From Candidatus Uhrbacteria bacterium (GTDB lineage: Bacteria; Patescibacteriota; Patescibacteriia; UBA9934; GWF2-40-263): DNA of 64,000 nucleotides. The translations under genes were made by a program, and so were the position numbers. Positions 32,809 through 55,936 of this stretch are shown piece by piece. The stretch spans positions 192,154 through 256,153 of the forward strand of contig JAPLZK010000002.1 of assembly GCA_026395055.1 (NCBI GenBank). The letters run 5' to 3'. Numbering within the stretch: position 1 is the first letter of the stretch; every line of letters begins with the position of its first letter. The notes under the pieces are model-generated. The model was not told the DNA's origin. It did not search any database and worked only from the letters and a program-made list of their open reading frames with translations.

Positions 32809-32863
32809 TGTAAAATGAGGAGTGGATTTATCCATTCCTCTTTTTCGTTTATAATCATTGTAT

Positions 32864-33631
32864 ATGACACTCCTTGAACAAATCGGCTCCGACGTGAAAG
32901 ATGCTATGCGCGCAAAAGAAGAATCTACGCTCTCAACGCTTCGCATGCTTAAGTCTGCGCTTAAAAATAAAGAGATCGATCTTATTCGTCCACTTACAGA
33001 GGTGGAGGTTTTAGATGTGATTAAATCACAGGCAAAACAATTGAAGGAGGCCATTGATCAATTCGAAGCAGGAGGTCGATCAGACCTGGCGGAATCAAAC
33101 AAGATTGAACTTGAGGTGCTGAAAAAATATATGCCAGCCGAATTGTCGGATGCGGATCTTGAGGCTGTTGTGAAAGACACACTCGCACAATCAGGTGTAA
33201 GCTCGAAAGCGGACATGGGGAAGGCGATGGGCTTTGTCATGAAAGCAGTTGCGGGGCGTGCAGACGGAACACGTGTGAAATCTCTTGTTGAAAAAATGCT
33301 GAGCATGTTTATCTTTGCCGTCCTTGTAAATACCATGGTCGTTTCTTCTGCACATGCAGAAATCGGTACGGTAACGCTTCCCGAATTTGGAACGTATTCG
33401 TACTTGCCTTACCTAGAAATGGGAATTCGTCTTGTGCGTGTCATGTTTTTGTTCGCTGGCTTATTTTCCATTATGGAAATTTTGCGTGGGGGAGTGGAAA
33501 TGACCGTTGGTTCTGTACGTGATGCTGTAAGAGACAAAGCAGAGCATAAAATTATTACAGGATTCATGAATATAGGAGTTGTTGTCGCACTCTTTTGTGT
33601 AACGACTGTTGTGCTTAAACAGTTGGGCTAG
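32864..33631 (+). CDS. yqeY: GatB/YqeY-domain protein read in-frame into a C-terminal pilin-like module (possible fusion or internal start at 33296/33305)
   Basis: Residues 1-147 are a complete YqeY domain. Then comes a signal-peptide-like MFIFAVLVNTMVVSSAHA and a two-helix module GIRLVRVMFLFAGLFSIMEILRGG...HKIITGFMNIGVVVALFCVTTVVL homologous to the N-termini of the next two genes. A TATAAT box sits 10 nt upstream of the ATG. Confidence 0.6.
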   Translation: MTLLEQIGSDVKDAMRAKEESTLSTLRMLKSALKNKEIDLIRPLTEVEVLDVIKSQAKQLKEAIDQFEAGGRSDLAESNKIELEVLKKYMPAELSDADLEAVVKDTLAQSGVSSKADMGKAMGFVMKAVAGRADGTRVKSLVEKMLSMFIFAVLVNTMVVSSAHAEIGTVTLPEFGTYSYLPYLEMGIRLVRVMFLFAGLFSIMEILRGGVEMTVGSVRDAVRDKAEHKIITGFMNIGVVVALFCVTTVVLKQLG

Positions 33632-33655
33632 ACTATCCACATCTTTTCTATTCGA

Positions 33656-33700
33656 TTGATCAAAAATACGATACAATGTTTGTGTCGTATTTTTGATATC
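33656..33700 (+). promoter_or_regulatory. Inverted repeat (TTGATCAAAAATACGA / TCGTATTTTTGATATC) whose loop contains TACAAT, immediately upstream of the surface-protein operon
   Basis: 14-16 bp arms around a 13-nt loop, 3 nt before the ATG at 33703. Operator-like geometry overlapping a -10-like hexamer. Confidence 0.45.
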
Positions 33701-33702
33701 AC

Positions 33703-35613
33703 ATGAAGCGTTTCTTTGACCCAAGAAACAAATCTTTTTCACACGTGACAGCCATACTTGGTATGCTGTTTCTTTGCGTTATTGGACTGTTCGTTGCGCA
33801 ACATGGTGTTCTTGCAGCAACACCATCACCGCTAGACGCTGTTGGAGCAGGGGCGGGTCTTCCACAAACAAGTTTGCCGATCTTGATTGCAAAAATTATC
33901 CGCGCCGTTCTTGGTGTGCTTGGAATCATTACAGTGATTCTTGTGATCTATGCGGGTTGGCTTTACATGAGTGCACAAGGTGATCCCACAAAGGTAGCAA
34001 AATCAAAAAAGATCATCACAAACGCCGTCATTGGTCTTGTCATTATTTTTTCTTCTTATTCCATTGCTTCGTGGATTCTCGGTAAGCTGCTTGATGCGGC
34101 GAATGGTCCGGGCACAATCGTAAGCATTGCCAAAAAATACTCAGAACCACTTGCGGGTTCACTTGGAGCGGGAATTATTGAAAGTCATTACCCAATGCGT
34201 GGCGCAACAGGTGTTCCTCGCAACACAAAAGTATTCGTCACGTTTAAAGAAGCCATTAAGCCACAAACCATCATTGATGGGTATGTATCACCCTGTACGT
34301 ATGTTGTGGCAAATCCACAAACACCCGCACTTTGTTCTACAAAATTAAAGACAGATGCGGTCGCCATGTTTGAAACAGCCAAAGGAGAAACAACCAAACT
34401 CGCAACAGACAAGGTGGTTGTAACGGTGAGTGATGATAAAAAGACCTTCGTCTTCAAACCTGTTTCGTATCTTGGAAATGCCGAAAAGGATACAAATTTT
34501 ACAGTCGCTTTGAAACCAAGTATTCAAAAAGCGGACGGAAGTGCTGCGTTTGCAGGAGTAAACTCGGCTGGATACGGATGGAACTTTACTGTATCAACCA
34601 CGGTTGATTTAACTCCACCAACCATTGTTTCCATCATCCCATCGGTTTCAGAACTTCAACCTCCAGGCGGAACGGTTGTAAATACGCTCAAGAAAAATAT
34701 TTCCGTTGAAATTACGTTCAATGAAGCCATGGATCCAATTGCTACAACGGGAACCTATCAAAAAAACGGAGGAGCAACAAAAAGTTTTCAACGCATTACA
34801 GTGGGTGATGGGAGCCCAGATCCTGTGAACGGATCGTATGATATTAGTAACTCGTATAAAACTGTTGGGTTTACAACAGTAGATGCGTGCGGAAAAGATC
34901 CGTGCGGCGGAACCATTTACTGTTTGCCAGGAGGAAAAACCATTACAGTGACAGCAAAAGCGGCCAGCATTGATGACAGTAATCCGCCACAAGGAATTTT
35001 AACGGGGGTGAATTATGATGGTGTTGTAGATGCTGCAGGAAATTCTCTAGACGGAAATGGAGACAATAAAGCGTGTGGAAGTTCAACAGATAAGGTCGCG
35101 TGTCCTGGTGCGCAAACAAATGACGACTATACATGGAATTTTCATACTTCAAATGACACAGATGATACAGTCCCAAAAATTCAATCGTTGGCACCGGATA
35201 TAAATGAGGGAAGTATTGATGTGTCGAACGATATCACCCTCACATTCAACACATTATTAAAAGCGTCAACCATTAGTTCCAGTAACATTACGCTCACTCC
35301 AGATCCAGCAACGTATATTATGTGGTTCAGTCCATCAAAGACAGACATACCAAATACACTTCCAACGGATATTGCTACTCAATCTGTCATTCACATTTCA
35401 CATCCACCATTTATTTCAAACGCAGAAGGCGGTTCTGGGTATTGGCCACGTGTCACGCAAGAAGTGAAAAGTGCGTATCAAATTTGTATGTTTCCATCTA
35501 TGGGGGACGTTACGAGTTCTGCAAAAGACTGTAATGGAGCAGATCCAGCCAAACCGTATTGTTGTAGCGGATCTCCGTCAGCTTCCGCGTGTGCCGTTCC
35601 ACTTCCAAAGTAA
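33703..35613 (+). CDS. Large surface protein (636 aa) with pilin-like N-terminal membrane module and Big/Ig-like domains
   Basis: N-terminus is signal/TM, then AATPSPLDAVGAG, then two hydrophobic helices separated by GDPTKVAKSKK. Downstream are Big-like signatures (PPTIVSIIPSVSE...ISVEITFNEAMDP) and a Cys-rich C-terminus. Confidence 0.8.
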   Translation: MKRFFDPRNKSFSHVTAILGMLFLCVIGLFVAQHGVLAATPSPLDAVGAGAGLPQTSLPILIAKIIRAVLGVLGIITVILVIYAGWLYMSAQGDPTKVAKSKKIITNAVIGLVIIFSSYSIASWILGKLLDAANGPGTIVSIAKKYSEPLAGSLGAGIIESHYPMRGATGVPRNTKVFVTFKEAIKPQTIIDGYVSPCTYVVANPQTPALCSTKLKTDAVAMFETAKGETTKLATDKVVVTVSDDKKTFVFKPVSYLGNAEKDTNFTVALKPSIQKADGSAAFAGVNSAGYGWNFTVSTTVDLTPPTIVSIIPSVSELQPPGGTVVNTLKKNISVEITFNEAMDPIATTGTYQKNGGATKSFQRITVGDGSPDPVNGSYDISNSYKTVGFTTVDACGKDPCGGTIYCLPGGKTITVTAKAASIDDSNPPQGILTGVNYDGVVDAAGNSLDGNGDNKACGSSTDKVACPGAQTNDDYTWNFHTSNDTDDTVPKIQSLAPDINEGSIDVSNDITLTFNTLLKASTISSSNITLTPDPATYIMWFSPSKTDIPNTLPTDIATQSVIHISHPPFISNAEGGSGYWPRVTQEVKSAYQICMFPSMGDVTSSAKDCNGADPAKPYCCSGSPSASACAVPLPK

Positions 35614-35622
35614 ATTTTTTAC

Positions 35623-38600
35623 ATGAACCTGTATAGATTGTTCAAATCGATTTCCATTCTAGCCGTCCTTGTTTGTACGGGAATCTTTTTTGTCCACCCA
35701 GTCTTTGCAGTAAGTCCCACAGACTCCAATGCATTTTCTTCCTTTGCGGCTAGTGCGGGGTTTGCAGCGGGCCCTTCGGTGATTGTGATCATTGCACGAT
35801 TGATTCGTACATTCATTTCATTTCTGGGAGTGATTGCGGTTATCATCGTCCTTTACGGTGGGTTCATGTACATGACCGCCGGAGGAAATGACGAACGCGT
35901 CAAAAAAGCAAAAAAGATCATTCTGAATGGAATTATTGGTCTTGTTATTGTTCTTTTGTCATTTACGATCGCTCAGTTCATTGTGGGTAAGTTGGTGGCA
36001 GCAACGTCAGAGGCAGATATTTCTGCCTACTGTTTACAAAATCCAACAGATCCAACGTGTAAAAAATCACCTCCGTTTCCACCAGCGGTTCCACCGTTCA
36101 CATTGAATCCACCAACCTCTCTTATTCAATGCGCGGCAGGGATTCGTAATTTGAAATTGGTATTTGTTTTTTCAAAATCTGTAAAAGATGAAAAGGGGAT
36201 TACCGTAAAACAAAATGGCGCAGATGTTCCAGGGACGTTTTCGTTCTCCGGATCTAAAATCATGTTTGTTCCAGACGCAAAATGTGATGCCCCTAATGAC
36301 ACGCTTCATTGTTTTGCAAAAGACTCCACGTTTCATGTAGAGGTTGATTCCACAAAAGTAAAATCCTCAAATGACATCGCACTCACCTGTAAAGTTGTTG
36401 GGGGAGTAAATCCTTGTTCGTTTAATTTTACAACAGGCTCTTCTGTGGACGTGAAACCTCCACAAGAAGTTTCGTTCGTAGATCCAAAAGACGGTGCAAA
36501 AGCCATTTTGGGTTTAAGTAAAGCGCTTCAAGTAAAGACCGTTGATGATTCAGGAGTCGCAAGTGTTGATTTTTTTGCGATTGATGGAAGTGTTCCGATC
36601 AATATATCTTCTACTCCTGTAAATCCAACGGTCGCGAATGGACTCACAACCGCGAACTTCAATGGTGTTTGGGTTCCGGTAGGTCTTGAAACAAACGCAC
36701 CCTATTCCGTTTGGGCAACGGCCACAGACTGTGCAGGGAACACAAAAACTTCTAGCAAAGTTTCTCTCATGTTACGTGCACCAAACTGTGATAACAGTGC
36801 GCAAGATGCCGCGGCTCCGTATGGTGAAACAGGAAGCTGTAAGCCTGGAGAAGCGTGTGATTGTGGTGGATCATCTACAAGTCCATTTTACTGCGGACTT
36901 TGTAAACCTTCTGCATGTACAAACAGTGCGGAATGTTCATCTGGATATTGTATTGCGGGAAAATGTCAGGATGTCGCCGTGATCCAATCGGTTTCTCCAG
37001 ATAACGGTGCAGTAAACAACTTAGTAACCATTACAGGTTCTGGATTCGGAACAGTGCCGGGTACAATTGATTTTCTTGGAACAGAAAAAGAGAATACAAC
37101 AAAGTCGGCCAATGCATATCAGTGTGGAGCAAGCGTTTCGTGGTCACCAAAAGAAATTGTTGTACAGATTCCAGCCGGATCCATCGATGGTCCGTTGAAA
37201 GTAAATATTCCTGCAGTTGGAGCAGATCCCGCACAGTCTGACAGAACAGATGATGCTGTAGGTCCTGCCATGTCTTTGTTTGATGTAAACGCGATTAAGC
37301 GTCCTGGTTTGTGTTCTGTTGCTCCTGTAGCCGCAGAAGTAAATACTCCTATTACCCTTACGGGATTATCGTTTGGATCCACACAAGGTTCTTCTTCTAT
37401 TTATCTTTCGAGTTTTGAAGCAAAAGCAACCAATTGGACTGGAACAGTTCTTGGTGCAACGGTTCCTGGAGTAGAAAGTGGTAAGTATGATGCACAAGTT
37501 TTTACCGGTGATTATTTCTGTTTGAATGCAAGTGGGGTAAAGGTAAACCCAGCTGTCACCTGTTTTTCTAATGATGATTGTACAAAAGTTGATCCTGCAT
37601 ACACGTGTGGAACGTCTTGGTGTTCAGAATCACTAAAGTTTTGTCAGAATAATAGTGCGTGTGGTGTAGGAGAAGGGAAATGTGTGGATGTGCGCGTTGG
37701 ATCAAACACAAAATCTTTCGTTGCCACCAATACACCTTCTGCCTCTAAGCCGGTTATTAAATCCATCGATCCTTCCAGAAAATTGTGTTATTGGTCTGCG
37801 GATCAACTTAAACCTTTGCAAACAAAGCAGGGGCTTTCAGACACAAACTTTAATAGTTTTGTAGATTCATTGAATGGAACAACGATGGGTATTGGATCCT
37901 TGTGTTCTGCAGATACAGATTGTTCAAAAAAGATTTCAGGCGATACGTACAACGGTGTCTGTAAAGAGTATCCAAACACAGGTGGTCCCGGTCAATACAT
38001 TACGATTTACGGGTTAGGGTTTGGAACAGCGAAAGGAACGGTAAAGTTTACAGATGCAAACGAGTATTACGCTCTCGGAGACGTTTCATTTCCAGATGCT
38101 TGTGGAAAAGATTATTGGCATGATGACCACATCATTGTAAAGGTTCCAAAAAGTTACAGCAGTCAAGCGGGGGATCTCACAAATACAAATTACAACGTAA
38201 CTGTATCGACCCAAGGAAATGTTGCTTCTGATCCGGTCGCGTTTCACGTTTATCCGCAGGTTGTTCCGGGACCAAGTATTTGTTCTATTGTTCCAAGTTC
38301 GGGGCCTATTGGAACATCTGTTTCACTCATTGGAGAAAATTTTGGGTTACCTGTAACAAACACGGGGTACAATCTTCAGGCTGTTTTTACAGATAATCAG
38401 CAATCAAAACCTGGAAGTTGGGCAAATACACTTGTTTCAAATATTTTAGTTCCGGCTACGGCAAAGTCTGGTCCGGTTCATCTTGAATTTGGTTCCAACT
38501 CTCTTAATTTTACGGTGGGAAACTGTAAAACAGATTCAAAAATTGTTTGTTCAGCTGGACAAACCTGTTGCGCAAACGGAACGTGCTCGCTGTCGTGTGA

Positions 38601-41600
38601 TGACACGCCAAAAATTTCACACTTTGCTTACAAAGTTTCCACAAGTCCTTTTCCGGTCGCGCCAACGGTGGTGGTGAACTGTTCTGATCCAAAATTTGCA
38701 AAACCTTCTCCATCTCCTTCTCCGCTTTGGAGTAAGCAAGACAATATTTGTGTTACGTCTGCTGTTACGGCTTCCTTTAGTGTTGCCATGGATCCAAATA
38801 CACTCACTGCAACAAACATCAAAATCCAGAAATGTACTTCAGAAGCAAATGGGGTCTGTGCCAATTCGGGATGGCAAGATGTTGTGGGAGCATTTCAGGT
38901 CCCAAGTGCGGTTGCATTTCAATGGGCACCAACACCTCCGGCTGTGCTTGATGCGAATACGTTATATCAGGTCACCATCAAGGGTGCATCCGCTCCAGGT
39001 GGTGGCGTAAAATCAAAGGGAAGTGGATTAACCCTGGGTGTATCCATGGCCCAAGATTTTTCTTGGCAATTCCGTACATCTGCTTCAAATAAAGATTGTG
39101 GCATCGGAAGTGTGGCTGTTTCACCAGCAAATTATCTTGCGACCAATGCGAGTGAAACCATTGGGTATTTATCTCAACTCCTTTCGAATCAAGATAGCTG
39201 TATTGTCTTGTCGTGTAATCCGTACAAGGTTCGTTGGAATTCTGATACATGGAATGCAACATTTGCGCCAAGTCATACACTCACCGTTCCAGATGCTGCG
39301 GCAGATCCAGCACTCGGCTCTTGTTCTGCCTCTGTTTTTCCAGACGCAAACACCATTCCAGGATTCCCAGCACATATTTCTTCTGTCGTTATCAATGATG
39401 GGAAAAACCCGCATGCAACCGGTACAGGAAATTTGAACATTGCTCTCACAAATCCAAAGGTAAGTGATTATTTTCCAAATTGTTCTTCTGCCTGTGGAAA
39501 TGCCATGCCGTGGGTTACGTTTAACGTTGCCATGAATCCTTGGTATTTCAGCAATGCAGGAGCGATTCGTATTTTCAAATGCCAAAATAGTTTATGTGAT
39601 CAAAGTCAGGAAACGTTTCAAAATATTATTTCAGGAATCACGTACGATGCCGCAACTTATAAAGCGAAAATTGGATTAAACACATCACTCACACAAAATA
39701 CGTGGTACCGCATTGTCGTTTCTGGAACAATCAAATCTGGAACGCAGGCACCTCTTTCCAATTCCGGATCCAATTTTGGTACGTCAGAAAATAAATTCTT
39801 CTCCGGAGATTTTTCTTGGAGATTTAAAACAAAAGATTCCGCCATCTCTTGTGTGGTAGACCGTGTTGGGGTTTCTCCAAAAACAGCAACGCTTAACTAT
39901 GTTGGACAACGACAAGAATACAGCGCCACAGCTTTTGGGGCGCCAGATGATTGTTCTGTGACAGGCCAAGCTCTTCAATCAACAGGATGGGGTACATGGG
40001 GAGCAACAGATACTCCAAACAAAATCGGAGCCGCTTCTTATGTTTTGGGGGTGGATCATAAATTGAATGAAATTACAACGTTCATGTTGAATGAAGGTTC
40101 GCTCGCGCTTGCTTCTACGCTTCCAAAAACATGTGCAGCAAATTGTTTGTTTACCGGAAATCCAATCAACGTTGGACAAGCGGTCTGTGGAAACTCGTCT
40201 ATAGAAAACGGTGAATCCTGTGATGATGGCAACACAACAGACGGAGATGGCTGCTCGAGCATCTGTCTTAAAGAAGGAACGGTTGCGCCAACATGTGGAA
40301 ACGGTGCGATGAATACAGGAGAACAGTGTGATGACGGAAATACAATAGACGGCGATGGTTGTTCTTCAAAATGTTTATTTGAAGGAGCAACATCTATCAA
40401 ATCTGTTTGTGGAGATGGTGTTTGGGATCACACGGATAAGAATGGCGGAGAAGCATGTGATGATGGAAATACGAAAAATGGCGACGGTTGTAATTCAAAT
40501 TGTTTGCTTGAAGGTGGGGTCGCTGCCTACTCAAGCGCACGTTGTGGCGATGGTTCCGTTGGTGTTGGAGAAACGTGTGATGACGGAAACACTGTGGACG
40601 GTGATGGTTGTTCCTCTATTTGTCTGAATGAAGGAACCGTAAAGGGAACAGATGCCACAAAAGCTCAGTGTGGAAATGGTGTTACAAACGTTGGAGAAGA
40701 TTCCGGATGTGATCTTGGCGTTGGATCTGTTGCTCCAGGCTGTTCCACAAAATGTTTGAAACTGGGTTCAAGTCCAAGTTATCCTTCGCCATCTATCTGT
40801 GGAAACGGAGGGGCTTTGGAAACAGGGGAACAATGTGAAGCTGCGGCAGGTGCATCTTATGTAGCGGGTCCTTACGGAGTTGCAGAAGTTTCTCCTGGTG
40901 CTTCAGTTGAGGTGGAAAAGGATATCACAAAAGCAACATTCGGTTATGCGATTTCAAATGTTTCTGCAACAGTAGGTGGAAAAACAGGAGTGGGTGAATT
41001 TAAGTTGCTTTGTTCTTGTGAGGCAGACAACCAGTGCGGAACAAAATCTGGAGATCCAACAAAGACGCTTGGTTGCGGTGCTTCAAAGTGCTGTTATGAA
41101 CGTCCGGCTATTACCGCATCCGCACCGGGGGATAATGCAACAGGCGTTTGTCGTAATACCGCGATCTCGTTTACGTTTGATCAAGAAATGGATGCGAATA
41201 GTTTTGGGTCCGTTGATTTGGATGGAGATGGAAAAATCTCTACCGCAGAGACAGATCCAAATTTGCAGCTCGAGTTGATTACCATGAAATCCGCATTGGG
41301 AGTTGATGAAAATGTAACAGCGGCAAATTGTCCGTATTATGCTCAACCGGTCGGATTCTTACATGCAAAGAATTTGCTTGTATCTGCTTGGAATTGGATT
41401 AAGGGCTTGTTTGGTCAACCCGCGATGGCAAACGCCACAACACAATGTTACGTTCCAACAACGTATGAACAAGATCCAGCAACGCACCAAGTGTATCTCA
41501 GATATACAGAGCGTTTGTTGCCACTCGCGAAATATAAATTAACCGTGAAAACAAAAAACGGAAATGCAAAAGGAATCTTGAGTAAAAATCAGGTCAGTAT

Positions 41601-44600
41601 TTGTCTCGGAGACAATGGAACGGCTTGTCAGTCTGTTTCACAAACAAATACGTTTACGACCGGATCGGATATTTGTTTGCTGGATGTTGCGCAGACAACA
41701 GATGAGGGAATCACACCAGCACCACCTTCATATCTTTCAACAAGTCCTGGGTATTATTCAAAAACAAACGAAACGCACAATTTTAGTGTGAAGCCTCTTT
41801 CGTATCGAAAAAATACAGGTTTGTTGGAAGAAATTACATCCATTCCGAATGTGTATTCCTGGACATGGAGTTGGGGGGCTCCTGTGAAAGATACGGGAAC
41901 AAATGTTGATATTTTGGGAACGATTGCAGTAAGCACAACAAGCAACTCGCAATATAAAGCGCTTGGAAAAAATGGTTCTGGCGATGTTATTGCAACAGCA
42001 ACCATTACATCAGATGCGGTAAGCAAGGTTTCTACAACCGGATCCGGAGTTTCCGGTCATGTCTCAGAAGTTGCCTTCTTGTGTGAAAACCCATGGCCAG
42101 ATTTGGCACACGGTGTTCCGTTTGTGGAAACGGGGGCTAACACAAACTTCTCTCTCTTTTATTGTCGCGACATTGGAAAACCCGGAGAAGGAAAAATGCT
42201 TCCTGTACTTGCGCTTCCTCCAACAGACGCAACACCAGATCAAAAGATTATTAACACAAACGTGTTGAAGGAGTTAGTGTTCCATGTTGAAGGAACGAAA
42301 GACTCTATTGGGGTGCGCGTGCTCTCGAATCCAAAATATTTGTCTCCATTGGCATGGTTTCAATCTCAAGGATTTACGGGAACGCCAAAAACAACAACAC
42401 TTGATGGGTACGAAGCTGTTCAGACAGGTACAACCATTTATGCGGCCGCGGCAAATAGAAATGGTTCAAATCTCTACTCAAACATTTACGTTGTTTCATT
42501 TAACTCAGATGCAGGAAAAGATGCACAAGATATTTTTGATCTCGTGCTCAAAAATTTCCACTTGAATGCGAATGACACAGGTGCTACGGGTGTTTCACAT
42601 GTTGGTTTGTGTATGAGTGGAAACGCCTATACGCCAATTGCAGGCCCATTCGTCGCGTGTTCATGGGACGGAGATTGTTTGAATCAATGTAAACCAGAAG
42701 GAAAATGTTCTGTAACAGGAACCGTCTGTGATCCTAAACTAGGAAATACAGAATGTGCCGCAGATCCAAATGCGTTCTGTGATGCGGATAAACAAAAATT
42801 GATTCGTGACACCAAGCGTTTGACGGATATGACAAGCATGGTCGCTACGTTTGAAAAATATGGATCTTCACACGGTCATTGTTCCGTTACAAAAAATCAA
42901 ACATGTTCCACGAATGCACAGTGTTCCGGAACAGAAACGTGTGTTCCAGGTTATCCAACGGTGCAATCCGGTACATTTATTCCATCCATGAGTAACAGTA
43001 TTTGGCCTTCATGGAACAGTACGCTCGGAAATGCGGTGGGTGGAGCACTTCCAACAGATCCGCTTAACCAATACTGGGCACAATGTAAAAACGTAGGAGC
43101 AGGTTATGACTCTGCAACGTGTTGGAACAGTACACAAGGAAAATTTGTGTGTCCGGATGGTTCGCATGTGTACGGATATCAAAACCAGGGCGGAGAAGAT
43201 TACACATTATCTACAGAACTTGAATACGGTGCAGTTGCTTGGGTGAATAAGATTGATCAATCCGCATCAGACCATGCAACCATTCAAGCGTCGTATGGCT
43301 TAAACAAATCGCCAGCTGGATTGTTAGATGGATTTACGATCGCTCCACAATATTGCAACGCAACCACGTTTGGAAGTTCAACCATTTGTGGAGATGGTGT
43401 GAAGGGGGTTGGAGAAGCGTGTGAAAAAGGAGAAGTTAAATCTATTGCGTGCGCGGCAGGCGCTGGGTTTATTAACGTGACATGTAAGAGTGATTGTTCG
43501 GATTTCCAAGATGAAGCTGCGGCAAAAGCTGCGGGAGCAACCTGTAAACCATTCGCTTGTGGAAATGGAGTAAAAGATCCAGGAGAAACGTGTGATGACG
43601 GTGCATTAAACGGTACGTACGGACACTGTGGGGCAAACTGTACCCTTGCAAACGCATTTTCTTGTGGTGACGGTTACCTTGCCGGAAACGAACAGTGTGA
43701 TTGTGGAACGCCAACAAACTTCTCAACGCTTGCCGGAGCAAGCTGGGCAAAATCGAATAATCACTGCGATACCTATAATGGTGGATATTCCGCGACCGGA
43801 AAAAACTGTACGGTTGACTGCAAGCTTCCAGGACCAATGTGTAGCGACGCGATTGTGAACGACTCTTCTGAAGTTTGCGATAAGAGTACAGAAACGTATG
43901 CGGGAGCATTGAATGCGGATGGAACAAAGTGTAACGCATCATCTGGATGTGCAGTTGCCGCGTGTACAAAATCTAAAATTTGTACAGCGGGAACAAATAT
44001 TGGATCGACCTGTACAACTGACCTAAATTGTCCGACAGATGCAGCGGATGTTTGCGCATCAGATACTTGTGTGGCAAAAAAATGTTCCGCAAGTGGGAAG
44101 GCATGCGGAACAAATGCAGACTGTGTGGGTAAATGTTCCGTTAGCGGAAAGCTTTGTGGAACGACAGCAGATTGTGCGGGGAAATGTTCTGCTGAGCTAT
44201 ACGATCTAACCAGAACGCGCACGTGTCAGAATTATGGCACTTCACCCGTCTCTCAAGCGTGCTCATGGATAACGAATGCAAATAGTGGATGGGGAGACTG
44301 TGCAGGTGGTCCACAACAATGTGGAAATGGGAAAAAGGAAGGAGCAGAAGAGTGTGATGATGGAAATAGTTCAGATAATGATTCTTGTACAAACGCTTGT
44401 AAGTTGAATGTTTGCGGTGACAACAAAGTAAACGTCGGAATCGAATCCTGTGATAGTGGTGGAGCAAACGGAACCGTTTGTAACGCAGCATACGGTGCAA
44501 GCTGTAACTTCTGTAATAAATTCTGTCAGTACAAAACACAATCTGGTCCGTATTGTGGAGATGGAGTGATAAATGGAAATGAGTATTGTGATGGAAATGA

Positions 44601-45633
44601 TATTCCACGTCAGTGCTTCAAAGCGGATTCGGCAAAGTGTGCGGGTGGAACAAATGCGGCAGGTAAGGCGAGCAACGGAAAAGTTTGTGATCAATCGAAT
44701 CCATGTGGAGGTGATGCAAAGTGTGGTGATCAATCAAACCCGCAAGTTGCGGGAACCTGTTCAAAACAAGATGAAGGGAAAGTTGGTGGTCAATTAGGAT
44801 TTGAATGTTCCATCAGTCACACCTATTGCCGACCAAAAGGAACGTGTTGGGACGGAACGAATCCGGATGTTGCGAACGTTTGTACATCGAGTGCAGATTG
44901 TCCAAACGGCGGATCATGCGTGAATGATTCTGGATGTTATGGTGGGTACGGTGATTGTGTTCCAGCTCCAAAAGCATTTACTGGTTGTGATGCGGGGTAT
45001 ACGTGCCGTTTGGTTGGATCTTGTAATGGCGGAGACTCAAACGGGGAAAATGGAAAATTATGTACGACAGGAGGGCTTGGTTGGGAGTATTATCCAGATA
45101 ATAATAAAAATTATTGCGATCACACGTACACAAATGGAGTTGATACTGGTTCTGGAACCTGTCAGGTTCCGGTCTGTGGACCAAATTGCGGAAGCACCTG
45201 TCCAACCGCCTTCCAAAAAGTTTCTCTGCAAGTCCAAGGAAATGTAGCTGAGTCACAACCATCAAGTAATATTAATTTATATAGTTTCCAAAACGCTGCC
45301 GGTCAATCGCCAGATAGAGCAAGTATTCTTTTGCCTGCATGTCGCGTTGGGTCTAGTATCACAGCCGATATTGCAACCGGAAGTGCGCTTCTGAATACGG
45401 GGAATAACGCACAAATAATCGCGGCAACAAAAATAGATGCCAATGGAAAATATGTAAATGCTCAAACACAGACAGATATATTTGGTATCGGAAACGGAAT
45501 TAAACTGCCACTCCCAACCAAGTTTATCTGTCATGATGTTCCATTCTCTCTTCCGTTCAATGTAACACTCAATCCTCCGGCAGCATCGTCCGTTTCAATG
45601 AAGAACTTCGAGTTTACCTATTGTCCGCTTTAA
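35623..45633 (+). CDS. Giant surface protein (3336 aa): pilin-like N-module, Big/Ig-like and IPT/TIG domains, Myxococcus-type Cys-rich repeats
   Basis: Uninterrupted 10 kb ORF starting 9 nt after the previous stop. N-module matches the upstream paralog. IPT/TIG-like segments (IQSVSPDNGAVNNLVTITGSGFG; PSICSIVPSSGPIGTSVSLIGENFG) and more than 12 repeats of CG(N/D)Gx4-6GExCDDGNxxDGDGCSxxC. Confidence 0.85.
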   Translation: MNLYRLFKSISILAVLVCTGIFFVHPVFAVSPTDSNAFSSFAASAGFAAGPSVIVIIARLIRTFISFLGVIAVIIVLYGGFMYMTAGGNDERVKKAKKIILNGIIGLVIVLLSFTIAQFIVGKLVAATSEADISAYCLQNPTDPTCKKSPPFPPAVPPFTLNPPTSLIQCAAGIRNLKLVFVFSKSVKDEKGITVKQNGADVPGTFSFSGSKIMFVPDAKCDAPNDTLHCFAKDSTFHVEVDSTKVKSSNDIALTCKVVGGVNPCSFNFTTGSSVDVKPPQEVSFVDPKDGAKAILGLSKALQVKTVDDSGVASVDFFAIDGSVPINISSTPVNPTVANGLTTANFNGVWVPVGLETNAPYSVWATATDCAGNTKTSSKVSLMLRAPNCDNSAQDAAAPYGETGSCKPGEACDCGGSSTSPFYCGLCKPSACTNSAECSSGYCIAGKCQDVAVIQSVSPDNGAVNNLVTITGSGFGTVPGTIDFLGTEKENTTKSANAYQCGASVSWSPKEIVVQIPAGSIDGPLKVNIPAVGADPAQSDRTDDAVGPAMSLFDVNAIKRPGLCSVAPVAAEVNTPITLTGLSFGSTQGSSSIYLSSFEAKATNWTGTVLGATVPGVESGKYDAQVFTGDYFCLNASGVKVNPAVTCFSNDDCTKVDPAYTCGTSWCSESLKFCQNNSACGVGEGKCVDVRVGSNTKSFVATNTPSASKPVIKSIDPSRKLCYWSADQLKPLQTKQGLSDTNFNSFVDSLNGTTMGIGSLCSADTDCSKKISGDTYNGVCKEYPNTGGPGQYITIYGLGFGTAKGTVKFTDANEYYALGDVSFPDACGKDYWHDDHIIVKVPKSYSSQAGDLTNTNYNVTVSTQGNVASDPVAFHVYPQVVPGPSICSIVPSSGPIGTSVSLIGENFGLPVTNTGYNLQAVFTDNQQSKPGSWANTLVSNILVPATAKSGPVHLEFGSNSLNFTVGNCKTDSKIVCSAGQTCCANGTCSLSCDDTPKISHFAYKVSTSPFPVAPTVVVNCSDPKFAKPSPSPSPLWSKQDNICVTSAVTASFSVAMDPNTLTATNIKIQKCTSEANGVCANSGWQDVVGAFQVPSAVAFQWAPTPPAVLDANTLYQVTIKGASAPGGGVKSKGSGLTLGVSMAQDFSWQFRTSASNKDCGIGSVAVSPANYLATNASETIGYLSQLLSNQDSCIVLSCNPYKVRWNSDTWNATFAPSHTLTVPDAAADPALGSCSASVFPDANTIPGFPAHISSVVINDGKNPHATGTGNLNIALTNPKVSDYFPNCSSACGNAMPWVTFNVAMNPWYFSNAGAIRIFKCQNSLCDQSQETFQNIISGITYDAATYKAKIGLNTSLTQNTWYRIVVSGTIKSGTQAPLSNSGSNFGTSENKFFSGDFSWRFKTKDSAISCVVDRVGVSPKTATLNYVGQRQEYSATAFGAPDDCSVTGQALQSTGWGTWGATDTPNKIGAASYVLGVDHKLNEITTFMLNEGSLALASTLPKTCAANCLFTGNPINVGQAVCGNSSIENGESCDDGNTTDGDGCSSICLKEGTVAPTCGNGAMNTGEQCDDGNTIDGDGCSSKCLFEGATSIKSVCGDGVWDHTDKNGGEACDDGNTKNGDGCNSNCLLEGGVAAYSSARCGDGSVGVGETCDDGNTVDGDGCSSICLNEGTVKGTDATKAQCGNGVTNVGEDSGCDLGVGSVAPGCSTKCLKLGSSPSYPSPSICGNGGALETGEQCEAAAGASYVAGPYGVAEVSPGASVEVEKDITKATFGYAISNVSATVGGKTGVGEFKLLCSCEADNQCGTKSGDPTKTLGCGASKCCYERPAITASAPGDNATGVCRNTAISFTFDQEMDANSFGSVDLDGDGKISTAETDPNLQLELITMKSALGVDENVTAANCPYYAQPVGFLHAKNLLVSAWNWIKGLFGQPAMANATTQCYVPTTYEQDPATHQVYLRYTERLLPLAKYKLTVKTKNGNAKGILSKNQVSICLGDNGTACQSVSQTNTFTTGSDICLLDVAQTTDEGITPAPPSYLSTSPGYYSKTNETHNFSVKPLSYRKNTGLLEEITSIPNVYSWTWSWGAPVKDTGTNVDILGTIAVSTTSNSQYKALGKNGSGDVIATATITSDAVSKVSTTGSGVSGHVSEVAFLCENPWPDLAHGVPFVETGANTNFSLFYCRDIGKPGEGKMLPVLALPPTDATPDQKIINTNVLKELVFHVEGTKDSIGVRVLSNPKYLSPLAWFQSQGFTGTPKTTTLDGYEAVQTGTTIYAAAANRNGSNLYSNIYVVSFNSDAGKDAQDIFDLVLKNFHLNANDTGATGVSHVGLCMSGNAYTPIAGPFVACSWDGDCLNQCKPEGKCSVTGTVCDPKLGNTECAADPNAFCDADKQKLIRDTKRLTDMTSMVATFEKYGSSHGHCSVTKNQTCSTNAQCSGTETCVPGYPTVQSGTFIPSMSNSIWPSWNSTLGNAVGGALPTDPLNQYWAQCKNVGAGYDSATCWNSTQGKFVCPDGSHVYGYQNQGGEDYTLSTELEYGAVAWVNKIDQSASDHATIQASYGLNKSPAGLLDGFTIAPQYCNATTFGSSTICGDGVKGVGEACEKGEVKSIACAAGAGFINVTCKSDCSDFQDEAAAKAAGATCKPFACGNGVKDPGETCDDGALNGTYGHCGANCTLANAFSCGDGYLAGNEQCDCGTPTNFSTLAGASWAKSNNHCDTYNGGYSATGKNCTVDCKLPGPMCSDAIVNDSSEVCDKSTETYAGALNADGTKCNASSGCAVAACTKSKICTAGTNIGSTCTTDLNCPTDAADVCASDTCVAKKCSASGKACGTNADCVGKCSVSGKLCGTTADCAGKCSAELYDLTRTRTCQNYGTSPVSQACSWITNANSGWGDCAGGPQQCGNGKKEGAEECDDGNSSDNDSCTNACKLNVCGDNKVNVGIESCDSGGANGTVCNAAYGASCNFCNKFCQYKTQSGPYCGDGVINGNEYCDGNDIPRQCFKADSAKCAGGTNAAGKASNGKVCDQSNPCGGDAKCGDQSNPQVAGTCSKQDEGKVGGQLGFECSISHTYCRPKGTCWDGTNPDVANVCTSSADCPNGGSCVNDSGCYGGYGDCVPAPKAFTGCDAGYTCRLVGSCNGGDSNGENGKLCTTGGLGWEYYPDNNKNYCDHTYTNGVDTGSGTCQVPVCGPNCGSTCPTAFQKVSLQVQGNVAESQPSSNINLYSFQNAAGQSPDRASILLPACRVGSSITADIATGSALLNTGNNAQIIAATKIDANGKYVNAQTQTDIFGIGNGIKLPLPTKFICHDVPFSLPFNVTLNPPAASSVSMKNFEFTYCPL
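40180..40860 (+). repeat. Tandem array of ~6 degenerate ~110-120-bp coding repeats (Cys-rich CGNG...CDDGN...DGCS modules)
   Basis: Repeated tgtgga(a/g)a(c/t)gg...tgtgatga(t/c)gg(a/c)aa...ga(c/t)gg(t/c)tg(t/c)tc units read in the sequence. Confidence 0.75.
43380..44620 (+). repeat. Second, more dispersed array of the same Cys-rich module (at least 6 copies)
   Basis: CGDGVKGVGEACEKGE, CGNGVKDPGETCDDG, CGDGYLAGNEQCDCG, CGNGKKEGAEECDDGNSSDNDSC, CGDNKVNVGIESCDSG, CGDGVINGNEYCDGND. Confidence 0.7.
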
Positions 45634-45642
45634 ACGAATCGT

Positions 45643-46428
45643 ATGGATTTCGGTGATCATCCCGCACAGCCAAGACGCATCTCAAGAAAACTCGTCCTCA
45701 TTATTCTTGGGGGAATTGTTTTGGCTGGTGGGATCTTCTGGGGAGTTTTTTCCCTGATCCATCAGAATGCTCCGTTGACGACTTCAAGTTCTTCTTTATC
45801 AAACGTCTTTGGGAACTCTGCGCAAACTTCATCTGATCCGTGTGTGCAAACTTCGGACGCAAGTGTCTGTAAGATTACAAAAGCAAAAGATCTTGCAATC
45901 TCTTCCAAAAAACCTGATGCTTGTGACGTTCTCAAAGATGCAGATAAAAATGATTGTTACTGGAGTGTTGCGCGCGTAGCAAATGACGCCTCGATATGTG
46001 GAAAAATAGCTGATAAAGATATTTCCGCGCGTTGCTCGACGGAATTAAGTGCATCCGCGGCTTTTTCCGCGTCAGATGGAACGTTGTGTGATAAAATAGG
46101 GGACGTAAATGTGAAATCAAACTGTCAGAAGGTAATCACTTCAACAAAGGATCTCGTTTGCGCAAGCACAGATACAGATTGTCTGTTTACACGAGTGCTC
46201 GCAGCGGCAAATCAGGCACAAGATTCAGATGTCTGTAATGTTCTTGACCCAAAGCGTGAAGCGGATTGTAGAGCGCAGGTTCTTGTGAACGACCCAGATC
46301 ATGATGGTCTTGATTCCACCCAAGAAATCGTCTTGTATCACACAGATCCGCATAATGCAGATACGGATGGTGATGGGTACTCCGATGGTTCGGAAGTGAA
46401 TTCGGGACACGATCCTTTGAAAAAGTAA
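45643..46428 (+). CDS. Membrane-anchored Cys-rich protein with C-terminal TSP3/dockerin-like Ca-binding repeat pair
   Basis: N-terminal TM (LVLIILGGIVLAGGIFWGVF), 16 Cys in the ectodomain, C-terminus DPDHDGLDSTQEIVLYHTDPHNADTDGDGYSDGSEVNSGHDP. Confidence 0.7.
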   Translation: MDFGDHPAQPRRISRKLVLIILGGIVLAGGIFWGVFSLIHQNAPLTTSSSSLSNVFGNSAQTSSDPCVQTSDASVCKITKAKDLAISSKKPDACDVLKDADKNDCYWSVARVANDASICGKIADKDISARCSTELSASAAFSASDGTLCDKIGDVNVKSNCQKVITSTKDLVCASTDTDCLFTRVLAAANQAQDSDVCNVLDPKREADCRAQVLVNDPDHDGLDSTQEIVLYHTDPHNADTDGDGYSDGSEVNSGHDPLKK

Positions 46429-46476
46429 TTATTCTACACGCCTTGCCTTTCGGCAGGCAGGTAATCGCCATTCAAT

Positions 46477-47112
46477 ATGTTTGATGAAATTTCAAAAGAA
46501 CCAGAGGATGTGTTCGCACAAACGGACGCTGCAGCGCCGCAAATGACGCCACCAACCATGAACGCACCTCAACCTACCGTTGCGCCAGCGCCTGCAATGG
46601 CCGCCGCGTCTGCTCCGGTTATCGTGTCAGCATCTGAAAAAAGACCGTTTCCATGGAAACTTGTCGTTCTTTTTGTGGCGATTGTTGTTGTTGTTGGACT
46701 CGCGTTTTTCCTTAGCATGAAAATTCTCAACTCTCGTACGCCTGTTACGCCATCCGCACCTGTTGAAACTGCACAGCCTGCGACACAGGTTCCAACTCCA
46801 GAAGTTCCCGCTGTTGCACCCACAACAACACCTGTTGATCAAACTGCGCCAGCCCCAACTCCTGTTGTCGATCAAACACTCGATTCAGATAAAGATGGTC
46901 TGACGGATGTTCGCGAAGCACAACTCGGAACCAATCCAAATAATCCAGATACAGATGGAGACGGCTTGTTTGATAAGGAAGAGGTGGATGTTTACCACAC
47001 AAATCCATTAAATCCAGATACAGACGGAGATGGATTCAAAGATGGTGATGAAGTTAAGAAAGGATATAATCCAAATGGCCCAGGAAAACTTCTTCAAATT
47101 CCTCAAAAATAA
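46477..47112 (+). CDS. Single-pass membrane protein with Pro/Thr-rich linker and two DxDxDG Ca-binding repeat pairs
   Basis: TM LVVLFVAIVVVVGLAFFL, linker PVTPSAPVETAQPATQVPTPEVPAVAPTTTP, then DSDKDGLTDVREAQLGTNPNNPDTDGDGLFDKEEVDVYHTNPLNPDTDGDGFKDGDEV. Confidence 0.7.
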   Translation: MFDEISKEPEDVFAQTDAAAPQMTPPTMNAPQPTVAPAPAMAAASAPVIVSASEKRPFPWKLVVLFVAIVVVVGLAFFLSMKILNSRTPVTPSAPVETAQPATQVPTPEVPAVAPTTTPVDQTAPAPTPVVDQTLDSDKDGLTDVREAQLGTNPNNPDTDGDGLFDKEEVDVYHTNPLNPDTDGDGFKDGDEVKKGYNPNGPGKLLQIPQK

Positions 47113-47114
47113 GT

Positions 47115-48113
47115 ATGGCGGACCAGATGCTCCAACAACCCGTGACGCAAACGTCAACGCAAAACACACCTGATCAAGTGCGTGTGTTTGCGATGCCAGC
47201 ACGTTATCGTCACGGTGCGGTTGTGAATATGGTTGAACCCGTAAAAGCATCTGCCCCAACAGCCATTGTTCAGCCACCCGTTCCGCCAAAAGTTCTCGCG
47301 CCCATTCCGTCTGCACTTCCACAAAAACAACAGCCTTCACAGACAAAAAAAGGGTTATTGGTTGCTGGAGTCATTGTTCTTATTGCTCTTGGAATTGGCG
47401 GTTATCTTTTGTGGCGTAGTGTACAAAAAAATAAAGAAGCGATTCCTGTGGAACAACCTTCGCAAACGCAAACAACTTCTGAGACTCCGGCAATAACCCC
47501 AGCCACACCCGTTACAACACCTGTGACAACAGGAACGGTTCCATCAACAAATCCATTCCCGTCCGCGGTAACGCCTGGAGTAGATACGGATTCAGACGGT
47601 CTGACGGATATTGAAGAAACAATTGTCTACGGAACCAATCCAAATTTACCCGACACAGATGGTGACGGGTTCCTAGACGGAAATGAAGTTTTTCACGGAT
47701 ATAATCCAAACGGAACAGCTCCTGGGACACTTGAACTTGCCGGACTCGCACAAATGCTGAAGATCGACGGAATTCAGATGTTGTACCCAATGAAATGGAC
47801 CGTTCTCCCCGCATCTTCAGGAACAGGATCTGTTGTTTCAACAACAACAGGTGAAAGTGTTACGGTGAGTATTCTTGCAAAAGATGCATCGCTTTCTCTT
47901 TCCGATTGGTATCAACAATCCGGAAAAGCAGGAGCTCCCTCTAGCTCGAAGAGCAGAAAAGGGTACCCAATGCTCGTGGATAAAAACCAGTTGGGTGTGT
48001 ATTTAGATCTTGGAACACAGGTGGTGAGTCTGATTTATGACACGTCCACAAAAGCAACCATAGATTATCTTCAGACATTTCAAATGATGGTGAATAGTGT
48101 AGAAAAAATATGA
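47115..48113 (+). CDS. Single-pass membrane protein with Pro/Thr-rich linker, DxDxDG repeat pair and C-terminal beta-rich domain
   Basis: TM LLVAGVIVLIALGIGGYLLW, then DTDSDGLTDIEETIVYGTNPNLPDTDGDGFLDGNEVFHGYNPNG. Paralogous to the two preceding genes. Confidence 0.7.
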   Translation: MADQMLQQPVTQTSTQNTPDQVRVFAMPARYRHGAVVNMVEPVKASAPTAIVQPPVPPKVLAPIPSALPQKQQPSQTKKGLLVAGVIVLIALGIGGYLLWRSVQKNKEAIPVEQPSQTQTTSETPAITPATPVTTPVTTGTVPSTNPFPSAVTPGVDTDSDGLTDIEETIVYGTNPNLPDTDGDGFLDGNEVFHGYNPNGTAPGTLELAGLAQMLKIDGIQMLYPMKWTVLPASSGTGSVVSTTTGESVTVSILAKDASLSLSDWYQQSGKAGAPSSSKSRKGYPMLVDKNQLGVYLDLGTQVVSLIYDTSTKATIDYLQTFQMMVNSVEKI

Positions 48114-48547
48114 TTCAAATTGAACTGAATCAAGAGCTGTTGAAAGGGGGAATGCGGTTTCCGGAAGCGCGCTTGATTCAGATTGCAAAAGAAGTCTCAA
48201 GTGCCTTGAAGTTAAAGCGCAAGCACAATATTTCCGCCGCGTTTGTGTCGGAAAAGGAGATGAAGAAGCTCAACTTGCATCACAGAGGAAAGAATTCTGT
48301 GACGGATGTTTTATCATTCACACTCAATAACGAAGATTATTTTGGCGAGATCTTGTTCAGTTACGAACAGGCAAAGCGTCAGGCAAAAGAAATGAAGCAT
48401 TCGGTTCGTGATGAGATCACGTTCCTTACGGTTCATGGGCTGCTTCATGTGTTCGGGTTTGATCATGAAAAACCGCTCGATGCAAAAAAGATGTTTCCCT
48501 TGCAGACAAAAATTTTACTCAAGCTTGGTGTGGATCCCCGAATATGA
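48110..48547 (+). CDS. ybeY: Endoribonuclease YbeY (rRNA maturation factor)
   Basis: Zinc motif HGLLHVFGFDHE. ATGA overlap with the upstream gene. Confidence 0.85.
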   Translation: MIQIELNQELLKGGMRFPEARLIQIAKEVSSALKLKRKHNISAAFVSEKEMKKLNLHHRGKNSVTDVLSFTLNNEDYFGEILFSYEQAKRQAKEMKHSVRDEITFLTVHGLLHVFGFDHEKPLDAKKMFPLQTKILLKLGVDPRI

Positions 48548-50242: not shown

Positions 50243-50454
50243 GTGCAAATAATTTGAGTGAAACAAAACATGTCTCTTCGGCATGTTTTTCTTTTTTTGG
50301 CCAGTTTATCTATCCACAGTTGCGATTTTGTTTTCTTGACTTCCCCTTTGACGATGTTACAGTGTCATTACAATTTTTGTGCGCAAACAAAGGAAAAGTG
50401 AACAATAATAGTGTTCATCTTCGCACAAAACTTATTCGATTGAATACGAAATAT

Positions 50455-55291: not shown

Positions 55292-55394
55292 CATCGAGTG
55301 TTTTTCATTGACAATCTTTCGAAAATCGACTAGGATCATCAATCCTCAGCGTTGGGGATACAGGCGCACAATTCCAACAATTGGAGGTGAATTC

Positions 55395-55916: not shown

Positions 55917-55936
55917 TGCGTGTAAGGGGGATGTAC

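Follow-up and report, generated by a model that had tools for sequence, protein, structure and literature searches.

Pilins of the VirB2 type, assigned to the families PF18895 and PF04956, are widespread in Patescibacteria, where their genes form arrays that are often located near virB4; the identities within published arrays average 25% and reach a maximum of 54%, and such arrays are essential in Southlakia, a cultivated member of the group (PMC10633639, PMC12102498, PMC12857230). A Patescibacteria 'VirB2 array' has been described as 2–11 genes for VirB2-like pilins, placed in tandem or with one non-pilin gene between them (PMC12102498). Here, we describe a locus of Candidatus Uhrbacteria (GTDB class ABY1) in which three consecutive genes carry a module of this kind, in keeping with that description of an array, and in which two of the modules continue into large, probably extracellular domains. 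The locus lies in a stretch of 64,000 nucleotides of contig JAPLZK010000002.1 (assembly GCA_026395055.1), referred to as the window. Six successive genes of the plus strand (32858–48113) lead into ybeY and dgkA, namely a fusion of yqeY with a short module, the genes of a 636-residue and a 3336-residue protein (the latter called the giant), and three genes for single-pass membrane proteins (T1, T2, and T3). This consecutive run, noticed in a preliminary description of the window, is confirmed by the table of open reading frames (ORFs) and by the translations.

The two large proteins begin with the same module, as had been proposed. Within their first ~130 residues they are 47% identical over 78 residues (E 3e-24), and both score above the 26.6-bit gathering threshold of PF18895 (T4SS_pilin, VirB2/TrbC-like, a model of 71 positions), the 636-residue protein with 33.8 bits (model positions 4–71) and the giant with 32.3 bits (model positions 10–71). 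The matching hairpins occupy residues 57–125 (nt 33871–34077) and 59–120 (nt 35797–35982), respectively. The threshold of PF04956 (TrbC/VirB2, 27.9 bits) is not reached, a match being found for the 636-residue protein only (17.8 bits, E 0.004), and the NCBIfam model NF045849 (Mbov_0395 family pilin-like conjugal transfer protein) gives 33.8 and 30.9 bits, under its cut-off of 40 bits. With a profile built from both modules, 209 relatives are found; the best 120 of them are all of 233 residues or fewer, mostly 100–150, and those among them that bear a name are called 'pilin' or 'TrbC/VirB2 family protein'; moreover, some stand-alone relatives match both PF18895 and PF04956. By profile and pairwise comparison, the module is a real VirB2/TrbC-like pilin-family module, homologous between genes, and a generic signal peptide with a transmembrane (TM) anchor that lacks homology across genes, the alternative raised against it at the outset, is ruled out by the Pfam gathering score and by the homology itself.

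In the AlphaFold2 model of the module, calculated from a 32-sequence alignment, a signal-peptide helix and a short helix are followed by a long helical hairpin (residues 53–85 and 90–134), with a predicted local distance difference test score (pLDDT) of 79 overall and above 90 in the hairpin. Neither Lys nor Arg is found between the signal peptide and helix 1, and the loop between the helices, GGNDERVKKAKK, is strongly basic, so that according to the positive-inside rule the loop would be cytoplasmic and both ends of the module would point outward. The large C-terminal extensions would therefore be extracellular, which agrees with the 183 Cys residues of the giant.

The ectodomain of the 636-residue protein contains Big_5 Ig-like domains (3.9e-14) and 13 Cys. 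In the giant, Pfam and NCBIfam searches with the whole protein and segment by segment reveal an Ig-like domain, three TIG/IPT domains, and Big_5 domains, together with five Cys-rich acidic repeats of the DUF4215/myxo_disulf type (residues ~1440–1670) and a DLDGDG site resembling an EF hand; the Cys-rich C-terminal third holds additional DUF4215 repeats. Residues ~1920–2680 are unannotated; the only unannotated stretch that was modelled (1995–2440) consists of Ig-like β-sandwiches and revealed no enzyme fold. The Ig-like folds of the giant match domains of intimin, invasin, LigB, FdeC, and S-layer proteins; for the last of these (Sap, SbsB, and SbsC) the likeness is a generic Ig-like one only. 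Many orthologs of the giant carry a VWA domain near their distal C-terminus, with a DxSxS motif (consensus VDIVFVTDLSGSM) resembling a metal ion-dependent adhesion site (MIDAS), while the window giant and its closest relatives lack this domain and have a lineage-specific segment at this place (44620-45100, residues ~3000–3150). Given the predicted topology, the Ig-like domains, the Cys content, and the VWA domains of many orthologs point to extracellular proteins of adhesin-like architecture. In this respect the earlier proposal of an exported adhesin-like apparatus stands; the filament that it also considered is not supported.

Relatives of the giant that combine PF18895 with Ig-like domains number ~85 and range from 2000 to 5700 residues, those of Uhrbacteria being collinear, 3200–3600 residues long, and recognizable down to ~35% identity. 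Across an alignment of 36 orthologs, the giant is evenly conserved with few indels, and identity to the window giant reaches 67% in the hairpin (residues 51–100), against ~43% overall; in the family of the 636-residue protein the corresponding values are 0.58 and 0.49. This conservation above the average suggests specific helix–helix interactions of the hairpin and not a passive anchor. The 636-residue protein shares 43–47% identity with its orthologs of loci L028 and L029, and in other Uhrbacteria orthologs of 600–700 residues are encoded directly downstream of yqeY. Attachment to a host or to other cells, as initially suggested, is possible for an adhesin; the collinear and even conservation of the 36 orthologs fits a core component of the envelope at least equally well.

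The first gene of the block encodes a full-length YqeY domain (residues 7–148; PF09424, 152.9 bits with a threshold of 27 bits, 7.7e-45, model positions 2–143 of 143) and is called by NCBI as a protein of 255 residues that starts at the ATG at 32864 (MCX6714585.1). The C-terminal 111 residues of the ORF, beginning at the ATG at 33296, comprise in this order a hydrophobic segment ending in AHA|E, a stretch free of Lys and Arg, and a two-helix hairpin. Signal peptidase I is predicted to cut between A167 and E168, leaving an N-terminus that would begin with EIGTVTLPEFGTYSYLPYLEMGIR, and cleavage of this signal-anchor is probable, as the −1 residue is small in 22/22 orthologs and −3 is A or V in most of them (AHA|E, ASA|S, AFA|A, ALA|A, and others). 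The short module has no match in Pfam even at E ≤10, so that the PF18895 threshold is not attained, and none in NCBIfam. With hhalign, its family (A2) aligns end to end with the T4SS_pilin modules (A3), from the signal peptide through the cleavage site to both helices (98%, E 1.5e-13, 120 columns), and BLASTP finds 28% identity to the giant's module over 67 residues (E 1e-5). On these comparisons, the short module is a divergent relative of T4SS_pilin and not a Pfam-defined member, and the label 'pilin-like' given to it earlier proves apt. A word-indexed homolog search with the short module returned one close relative, and an exhaustive phmmer search of 1.84 billion representatives returned 12 matches, about half of them fused to YqeY: P0122, P0128, and P0131 are full fusions, P0123 and P0126 have the C-terminal part of YqeY before the module, and P0129 (92 residues) is the module alone, possibly truncated.

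A scan of GTDB species representatives with a four-sequence alignment of the YqeY C-terminal module recovered 21 Uhrbacteria loci, which makes 22 sequences with that of the window. YqeY and the module form a single unbroken ORF of ~250 codons in all 22 species, at identities of 28–85%, and no start codon is conserved at the junction. Since a chance in-frame layout would not outlast divergence to 28% identity, we therefore treat the short module as a genuine translational fusion to YqeY, and the separate gene for a short major-pilin subunit that had been envisaged is not supported. The module evolves faster than the YqeY domain (mean identity 0.39 versus 0.59). In Kerfeldbacteria and Magasanikbacteria, an ordinary YqeY of 144–147 residues directly precedes the pilin-module proteins and the short module is absent; the presence of the module in Uhrbacteria only, with plain YqeY in sister lineages, therefore suggests that the fusion arose in the ancestor of Uhrbacteria. 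In genome GCA_016188495.1 (L016/L028), the fusion no longer adjoins the other genes of the block; these remain intact on a different contig, with small unannotated genes ahead of them, and the fusion is thus retained even when unlinked.

Downstream of the giant, the genes T1, T2, and T3 had been described as single-pass membrane paralogs with DxDxDG repeats, which is correct: each protein has a single hydrophobic segment and 2–3 DxDxDG motifs, and each scores above the 25-bit threshold of PF18884 (TSP3_bac; thrombospondin type 3, TSP3). The linkers before the TSP3 repeats are rich in Pro, Thr, and Ala, but in T1 a Cys-rich region takes their place, its ectodomain having 12 Cys and two C-terminal TSP3-type Ca-binding repeats; T2 has a Pro/Thr-rich linker and three repeats, and T3 a linker, two repeats, and a C-terminal domain of ~130 residues with no assigned fold. 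T2 and T3 are clearly paralogous, sharing 35% identity over 193 residues (E 3e-25), while T1 resembles them in the repeat region only. Orthologs of T1 (275 residues in L028, 293 in L029), of T2 (L028, L029, and L030 of Kerfeldbacteria), and of T3 (356, 334, and 358 residues in L028, L029, and L030) correspond one to one and are arranged identically in distant Uhrbacteria, those of T2 and T3 being present in Kerfeldbacteria too; the triplication is therefore ancient and has been maintained. The cytoplasmic N-terminus of T3 (47115-47260) also displays a motif, F/Y-x-MP-x-x-Y-R-H-G, that is kept from Uhrbacteria to Kerfeldbacteria with variants such as VFAMPARYRHG, IFTMPEPYRHG, IFTMPEEYRGG, and IYTMPEKFY.

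The block is part of the core genome and not an accessory island. At L029, a locus with an ortholog of 37% identity, the gene order is that of the window, namely topA-dprA-pth-der-LCP, then lepB-hisS-(rpsU)-yqeY, followed by the ~630-residue protein, the giant, T1-T2-T3-ybeY-dgkA-ftsA-ftsZ-nrdR-htrA-pyk. The order is also found in L028 and is largely kept, without the YqeY fusion, in L030, and the succession T3–ybeY–dgkA is the same in all three. A pilin-module gene directly follows the fusion in 17 of the 19 Uhrbacteria species loci that could be assessed. Both large genes are located downstream of the fusion in 13 of the 21 loci, the first large gene is cut by the contig end in four, two end too early for assessment, and two are rearranged, one of these genomes having the block intact on another contig. 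A mobile or horizontally acquired adhesin island is ruled out by a GC content near that of the window (0.43–0.47 in the block, slightly under the window range of 0.43–0.50), by the housekeeping flanks, and by synteny across candidate phyla.

Two observations concern the surroundings of these genes. The signal peptidase gene lepB (30362-30970) is located three genes upstream of the pilin-module genes, in the order lepB-hisS-rpsU-yqeY, from Uhrbacteria to Kerfeldbacteria (also at L029 and L030), a position that may be coincidental or may be tied to the processing of pilin-type leaders. At L010, in one Uhrbacteria species, a cassette of ~2.8 kb (10594-13120) stands between the yqeY fusion and a pilin-module gene of 601 codons; it encodes a reverse transcriptase (RVT_1, 2.6e-24) and a bAvd-like accessory protein, resembles a diversity-generating retroelement, and contains a pair of 134-nt repeats with 87% identity (11107–11240 and 11579–11712). 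Diversification of the pilin-fusion proteins by this cassette is ruled out, since the repeat pair lies inside the cassette and not in the pilin-module genes.

The relation of the block to a type IV secretion system (T4SS) was assessed in the window and in relatives. The Pfam scan of the window covered 58 ORFs, that is, the block genes and 50 others called greedily with at least 90 residues over the 64 kb. Neither VirB4 nor other mating-pair-formation (MPF) parts (VirB3/PrgI, VirB6, VirB8) were found among these 58 ORFs, nor was a VirD4 or PilB-type ATPase, five short ORFs being outside the scan, and the earlier statement that the window holds no assembly machine is thereby upheld. The closest stand-alone relatives of the module belong to conserved PF18895 arrays of 4–6 genes (L031 8760-11369, L032 7918-10808, L033 6324-8667), whose first gene is always longer (~233–250 codons) and which are located immediately downstream of genes for an NTP_transferase and a SBP_bac_1 solute-binding protein. 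No recognizable VirB4 is found within 10 kb of these arrays; the identification of their unannotated neighbours of 755–804 residues as VirB4 is not supported by any Pfam match. In the part considered of the Table S1 that accompanies Quiñonero-Coronel et al. 2025 (PMC12102498), the presence of VirB4 is entered as 'No' for the closest relative, RIFCSPLOWO2_01_FULL_47_17 (L003), for two other block-carrying Uhrbacteria genomes, and for the Magasanikbacteria genome of L025; the 36 Uhrbacteria assemblies in this part are divided into 18 'No' and 18 'Yes', and neighbouring entries of Microgenomatia and Paceibacteria are mostly 'Yes'. These entries concern relatives, the window's own genome being represented by its 64 kb only. 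To the extent of that part of the table, a near-universal block together with a patchy VirB4 argues that the block is independent of this machine.

From these features, we are inclined, by a modest measure, to read the block as encoding surface adhesin or coat proteins with a pilin hairpin as their anchor; these would be inserted through Sec, processed by signal peptidase I, and would project as Ig-like, Cys-rich fibrils. The module would consist of a cleavable signal sequence, a short outside segment free of Lys and Arg, and a two-helix membrane hairpin whose Lys/Arg-rich loop is cytoplasmic. The large proteins would undergo Sec-dependent insertion followed by cleavage by signal peptidase I and would then be retained by the hairpin, whose outward C-terminus would continue into ectodomains that stand out from the cell as a coat or a long fibrillar adhesin. 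In the first protein, the whole cytoplasmic YqeY would replace the pilin leader, and the cut at the conserved AxA would leave YqeY tethered by one TM helix and free a bare hairpin of ~90 residues, which may pack against those of both large proteins. T1, T2, and T3 would present Ca2+-binding repeats on Pro/Thr-rich stalks beside the giant, probably stabilizing or organizing the same surface layer. The hairpins could polymerize into a true T4SS pilus, but nothing in the data demands this.

Several points weigh against this anchored-adhesin reading. The insertion, cleavage, surface exposure, and interactions of the six proteins are all deduced from sequence, and the part assigned to the TSP3 proteins follows from synteny. 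A Foldseek search of the module model against the PDB gives generic helical hairpins only (ion-channel helices, CnrX, ATP-synthase c, all with E >0.1), with no pilin and no match at E <0.001, and a profile of 32 modules compared with all PDB sequences gives chance matches only and no solved conjugative pilin; because of this, the link to real pili is made by Pfam family and clan membership and by the sub-threshold match to PF04956. Moreover, the 'No' entries for VirB4 in the part of the table considered belong to draft metagenome-assembled genomes and may reflect incompleteness or divergence. Finally, the strong conservation of motifs that the hairpin has in common with stand-alone pilins also fits genuine polymerization.

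A constitutive, S-layer-like coat or scaffold, in which the hairpin-held 636-residue protein and the giant are cross-linked via Ca2+ by the TSP3 proteins and co-expressed with division genes, overlaps with the anchored-adhesin reading as a sub-reading of it; in this specific form we consider it rather unlikely. The single-copy core position between yqeY and ybeY-dgkA-ftsA-ftsZ, kept across candidate phyla, speaks for it, as do the Ca-binding repeats in all three neighbouring proteins and the collinear, evenly conserved orthologs with few indels, which are unlike fast-evolving host-range adhesins. However, the VWA domains of many orthologs indicate ligand binding, and one chain of 3300 residues is atypical of a lattice-forming S-layer protein.

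The model of the preliminary description, a true VirB2-type pilus, also appears improbable to us when its three elements are taken jointly: the bare hairpin freed from YqeY would be the major shaft subunit, the 636-residue protein and the giant would co-polymerize as 'extended pilins' serving as decorating or tip adhesins, and a Patescibacteria T4SS of the MPF-FATA-like type encoded elsewhere would extract and assemble the subunits. In favour of this model, each of the three modules is of the pilin family, no part of the giant is better conserved than its hairpin, T4SS loci do occur in class ABY1, and the locus fits the published 'VirB2 array', a kind of array that is essential in Southlakia. 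In structures of F-pili, both termini of the pilin are on the outer face of the fibre, and a C-terminal extension could thus be displayed. Nevertheless, an appendage of 3200 residues on a shaft subunit has no known precedent, no T4SS gene is found among the scanned ORFs of the 64 kb, and the nearest stand-alone pilin arrays adjoin no recognizable VirB4, which, in the part of the table considered, is also reported absent from the closest relative (L003), from two other carriers of the locus, and from 18 of the 36 Uhrbacteria assemblies. Furthermore, the short module evolves faster than YqeY (0.39 versus 0.59) and is restricted to Uhrbacteria, and Kerfeldbacteria and Magasanikbacteria keep the large proteins without it.

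In a more far-reaching proposal, to which we attach little probability, the block is an envelope system independent of any T4SS, for which Candidate Phyla Radiation (CPR) bacteria in class ABY1 domesticated the conjugative-pilin hairpin as the self-associating root of a giant Ca-stabilized fibril or coat; jointly with this, signal peptidase would, in Uhrbacteria, split a polyprotein of YqeY and a bare hairpin, so that YqeY tethered to the membrane and the free 'root' subunit would arise in a fixed ratio of 1:1. If this is true, surface proteins of bacteria would here be anchored in a new way, and for the first time a folded cytoplasmic protein would serve as the leader of a pilin.

Least probable, and judged separately as it is independent of the question of function, is that the short module is a small pilin gene of its own, translated from an internal start (ATG 33296), and the fusion an artefact of gene calling: ATGs at 33296 and 33305, a promoter-like match at 33288–33315, and the stand-alone relative P0129 (92 residues, maybe truncated) would suit it, but the junction frame is open in all 22 species at 28–85% identity, the start codon there is not conserved and L020 has none from the RVK codon to the TM segment, the hydrophobic segment begins right at the end of the YqeY domain with no space for a charged n-region, and shuffled sequences give more promoter-like matches than the region does.

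Table 1. Coordinates (in the window) of the features of the block and its immediate neighbours.
Feature	Position	Strand	Description
rpsU	32566–32808	+	Upstream of the yqeY ORF
Terminator-like hairpin	32817–32840	+	10-bp stem and T-run, after rpsU and just upstream of yqeY; consensus scan
yqeY–pilin-module fusion ORF	32858–33631	+	257 residues from TTG; PF09424 match; open in 22 species
Hydrophobic signal-anchor MLSMFIFAVLVNTMVVSSAHA	33296–33358	+	Hydrophobic segment on the Kyte–Doolittle (KD) scale, ending in an AxA signal-peptidase-I-type site
Bare pilin-like two-helix hairpin	33359–33628	+	~90 residues, without ectodomain; divergent PF18895-like (profile–profile)
Inverted repeat	33659–33697		18 nt, 94% complementary, 3-nt loop, TACAAT box; repeat search
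636-residue protein	33703–35613	+	Predicted signal peptide, T4SS_pilin hairpin, ~500-residue ectodomain
3336-residue giant	35623–45633	+	Predicted signal peptide, T4SS_pilin hairpin, ~3200-residue ectodomain
T1, single-pass membrane protein	45643–46428	+	261 residues; PF18884 2.1e-07, 31.1 bits; TM residues 17–35
T2, single-pass membrane protein	46477–47112	+	211 residues; PF18884 1.5e-20, 73.1 bits, 3 stretches; TM residues 62–80
T3, single-pass membrane protein	47115–48113	+	332 residues; PF18884 1.5e-08, 34.8 bits; TM residues 81–99
ybeY	48110–48547	+	PF02130 4.1e-35; −4 nt ATGA overlap with T3
dgkA	48544–48912	+	PF01219 7.3e-30; −4 nt ATGA overlap with ybeY

The distances between successive genes, from the 257-residue ORF through dgkA (Table 1), are 71, 9, 9, 48, 2, −4, and −4 nt, with ftsA and ftsZ following downstream. 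The genes are thus closely spaced as had been stated, except for the first gap, which exceeds the range of 3–48 nt given at first, and the several ATGA overlaps claimed are found at T3/ybeY and ybeY/dgkA only and not among the six genes themselves. A scan for promoters and terminators yielded no more sites in total than expected from shuffles, so that the terminator hints are only suggestive; after the terminator-like hairpin that follows rpsU, the next comparable one on the plus strand is at 50265–50289, after ftsA. The inverted repeat between the fusion and the gene of the 636-residue protein fills the 71-nt gap, ends 5 nt upstream of the start of this gene, folds as RNA with −21.7 kcal/mol (z −4.7), and is kept in the two closest relatives (L003 and L004), and in L029 the gap after yqeY holds a GC-rich terminator-like hairpin and TACAAT. 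This repeat may be a promoter/operator or a hairpin of the 5'-untranslated region. Of the single transcription unit with ybeY and dgkA that had been assumed, the part from the gene of the 636-residue protein through dgkA (or ftsA) is likely, and co-transcription with yqeY is doubtful in view of the palindrome and of the terminator-like hairpin in L029.

Among the other 50 scanned ORFs of the window, Pfam finds housekeeping functions only, including secY, adk, map, recO, two class-II aminoacyl-tRNA synthetases, scpAB, parAB, relA/spoT, topA, dprA, pth, der, an LCP protein, M23, lepB, hisS, nrdR, htrA, pyk, infC, and rplT. Rfam identifies no family inside the block and four tRNAs elsewhere in the window. 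The public NCBI names of the block proteins are generic ('GatB/YqeY domain-containing', 'Ig-like domain-containing', 'IPT/TIG domain-containing', and 'thrombospondin type 3 repeat-containing'). The two synthetases are tandem paralogs (6167-7501 and 8072-9385, ~570 nt apart) with a tRNA-synt_2 and an OB anticodon domain, of the Asp/Asn/Lys type, and several ORFs of 200–400 codons without a Pfam family at E ≤0.001 are located within 55143-57232, 59743-60660, 62572-63747, and 19983-21185.

How CPR bacteria (Patescibacteria) build their envelope and attach to hosts is largely an open question, and VirB2-like pilin arrays are among the few features of this envelope shown to be essential (in Southlakia), their role being unexplained. 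The block represents the same hairpin recruited as the putative root of giant Ig-like proteins in another large CPR class (ABY1), at a locus that is syntenic, near-universal, and linked to housekeeping genes, apparently regardless of whether VirB4 is detected. Ultra-small groundwater bacteria display fibrils or layers at their surface, for which the block provides concrete, widely conserved candidates; it also allows one to ask whether the 'T4SS pilins' of CPR bacteria are pilus subunits at all. The conserved fusion of YqeY with a prepilin is a curious prediction that can be checked. The literature searched describes no fusion of a T4SS_pilin module, be it with a giant ectodomain or with YqeY, and the arrangement appears to be undescribed though its building blocks are known.

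Compared with the VirB2-like arrays of Patescibacteria, the block shares the Pfam family, the consecutive and divergent chromosomal genes with pilin modules, and the occurrence in a CPR bacterium, and the identities among its modules (47% and about 20–28%) fall inside the published range (mean 25%, maximum 54%; PMC10633639, PMC12102498, PMC12857230). However, published arrays consist of small pilins of ~100–150 residues, often encoded beside virB4, whereas the block has ectodomains of 500 and 3200 residues and one fusion to YqeY, and it is embedded among housekeeping genes with no T4SS gene found in 64 kb; a text search of Quiñonero-Coronel et al. (PMC12102498) reveals no pilin module joined to a giant ectodomain or to YqeY. 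With VirB2, TrbC, and TraA of diderm T4SSs, the modules have in common a leader with a predicted signal peptidase I cut and a hairpin of two helices whose loop faces the cytoplasm or lumen, but neither a profile match to any solved pilin nor a specific fold match is seen, and PF04956 remains at 17.8 of 27.9 bits. Long leaders are typical of VirB2/TrbC/TraA pilins, and to our knowledge neither an ectodomain of kilodalton scale nor a leader that is itself a folded cytoplasmic protein is found in any pilin. The TSP3 proteins share DxDxDG repeats of the TSP3 type with CglD and MtsD of Myxococcus (NF033765, NF047639), which are extracellular adhesion/cohesion proteins; these matches are driven by the repeats (15–32 bits, with cut-offs of 400–800), and the proteins of the block are short, single-pass, and not orthologs. 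Finally, in comparison with intimin/invasin, LigB, FdeC, and VWA-tipped pilus adhesins, the Cys-rich DUF4215/myxo_disulf repeats of the giant are unusual among adhesin families with Ig-like repeats, and the predicted anchor is a pilin-type hairpin in place of a β-barrel, an LPXTG/sortase signal, or a lipobox.

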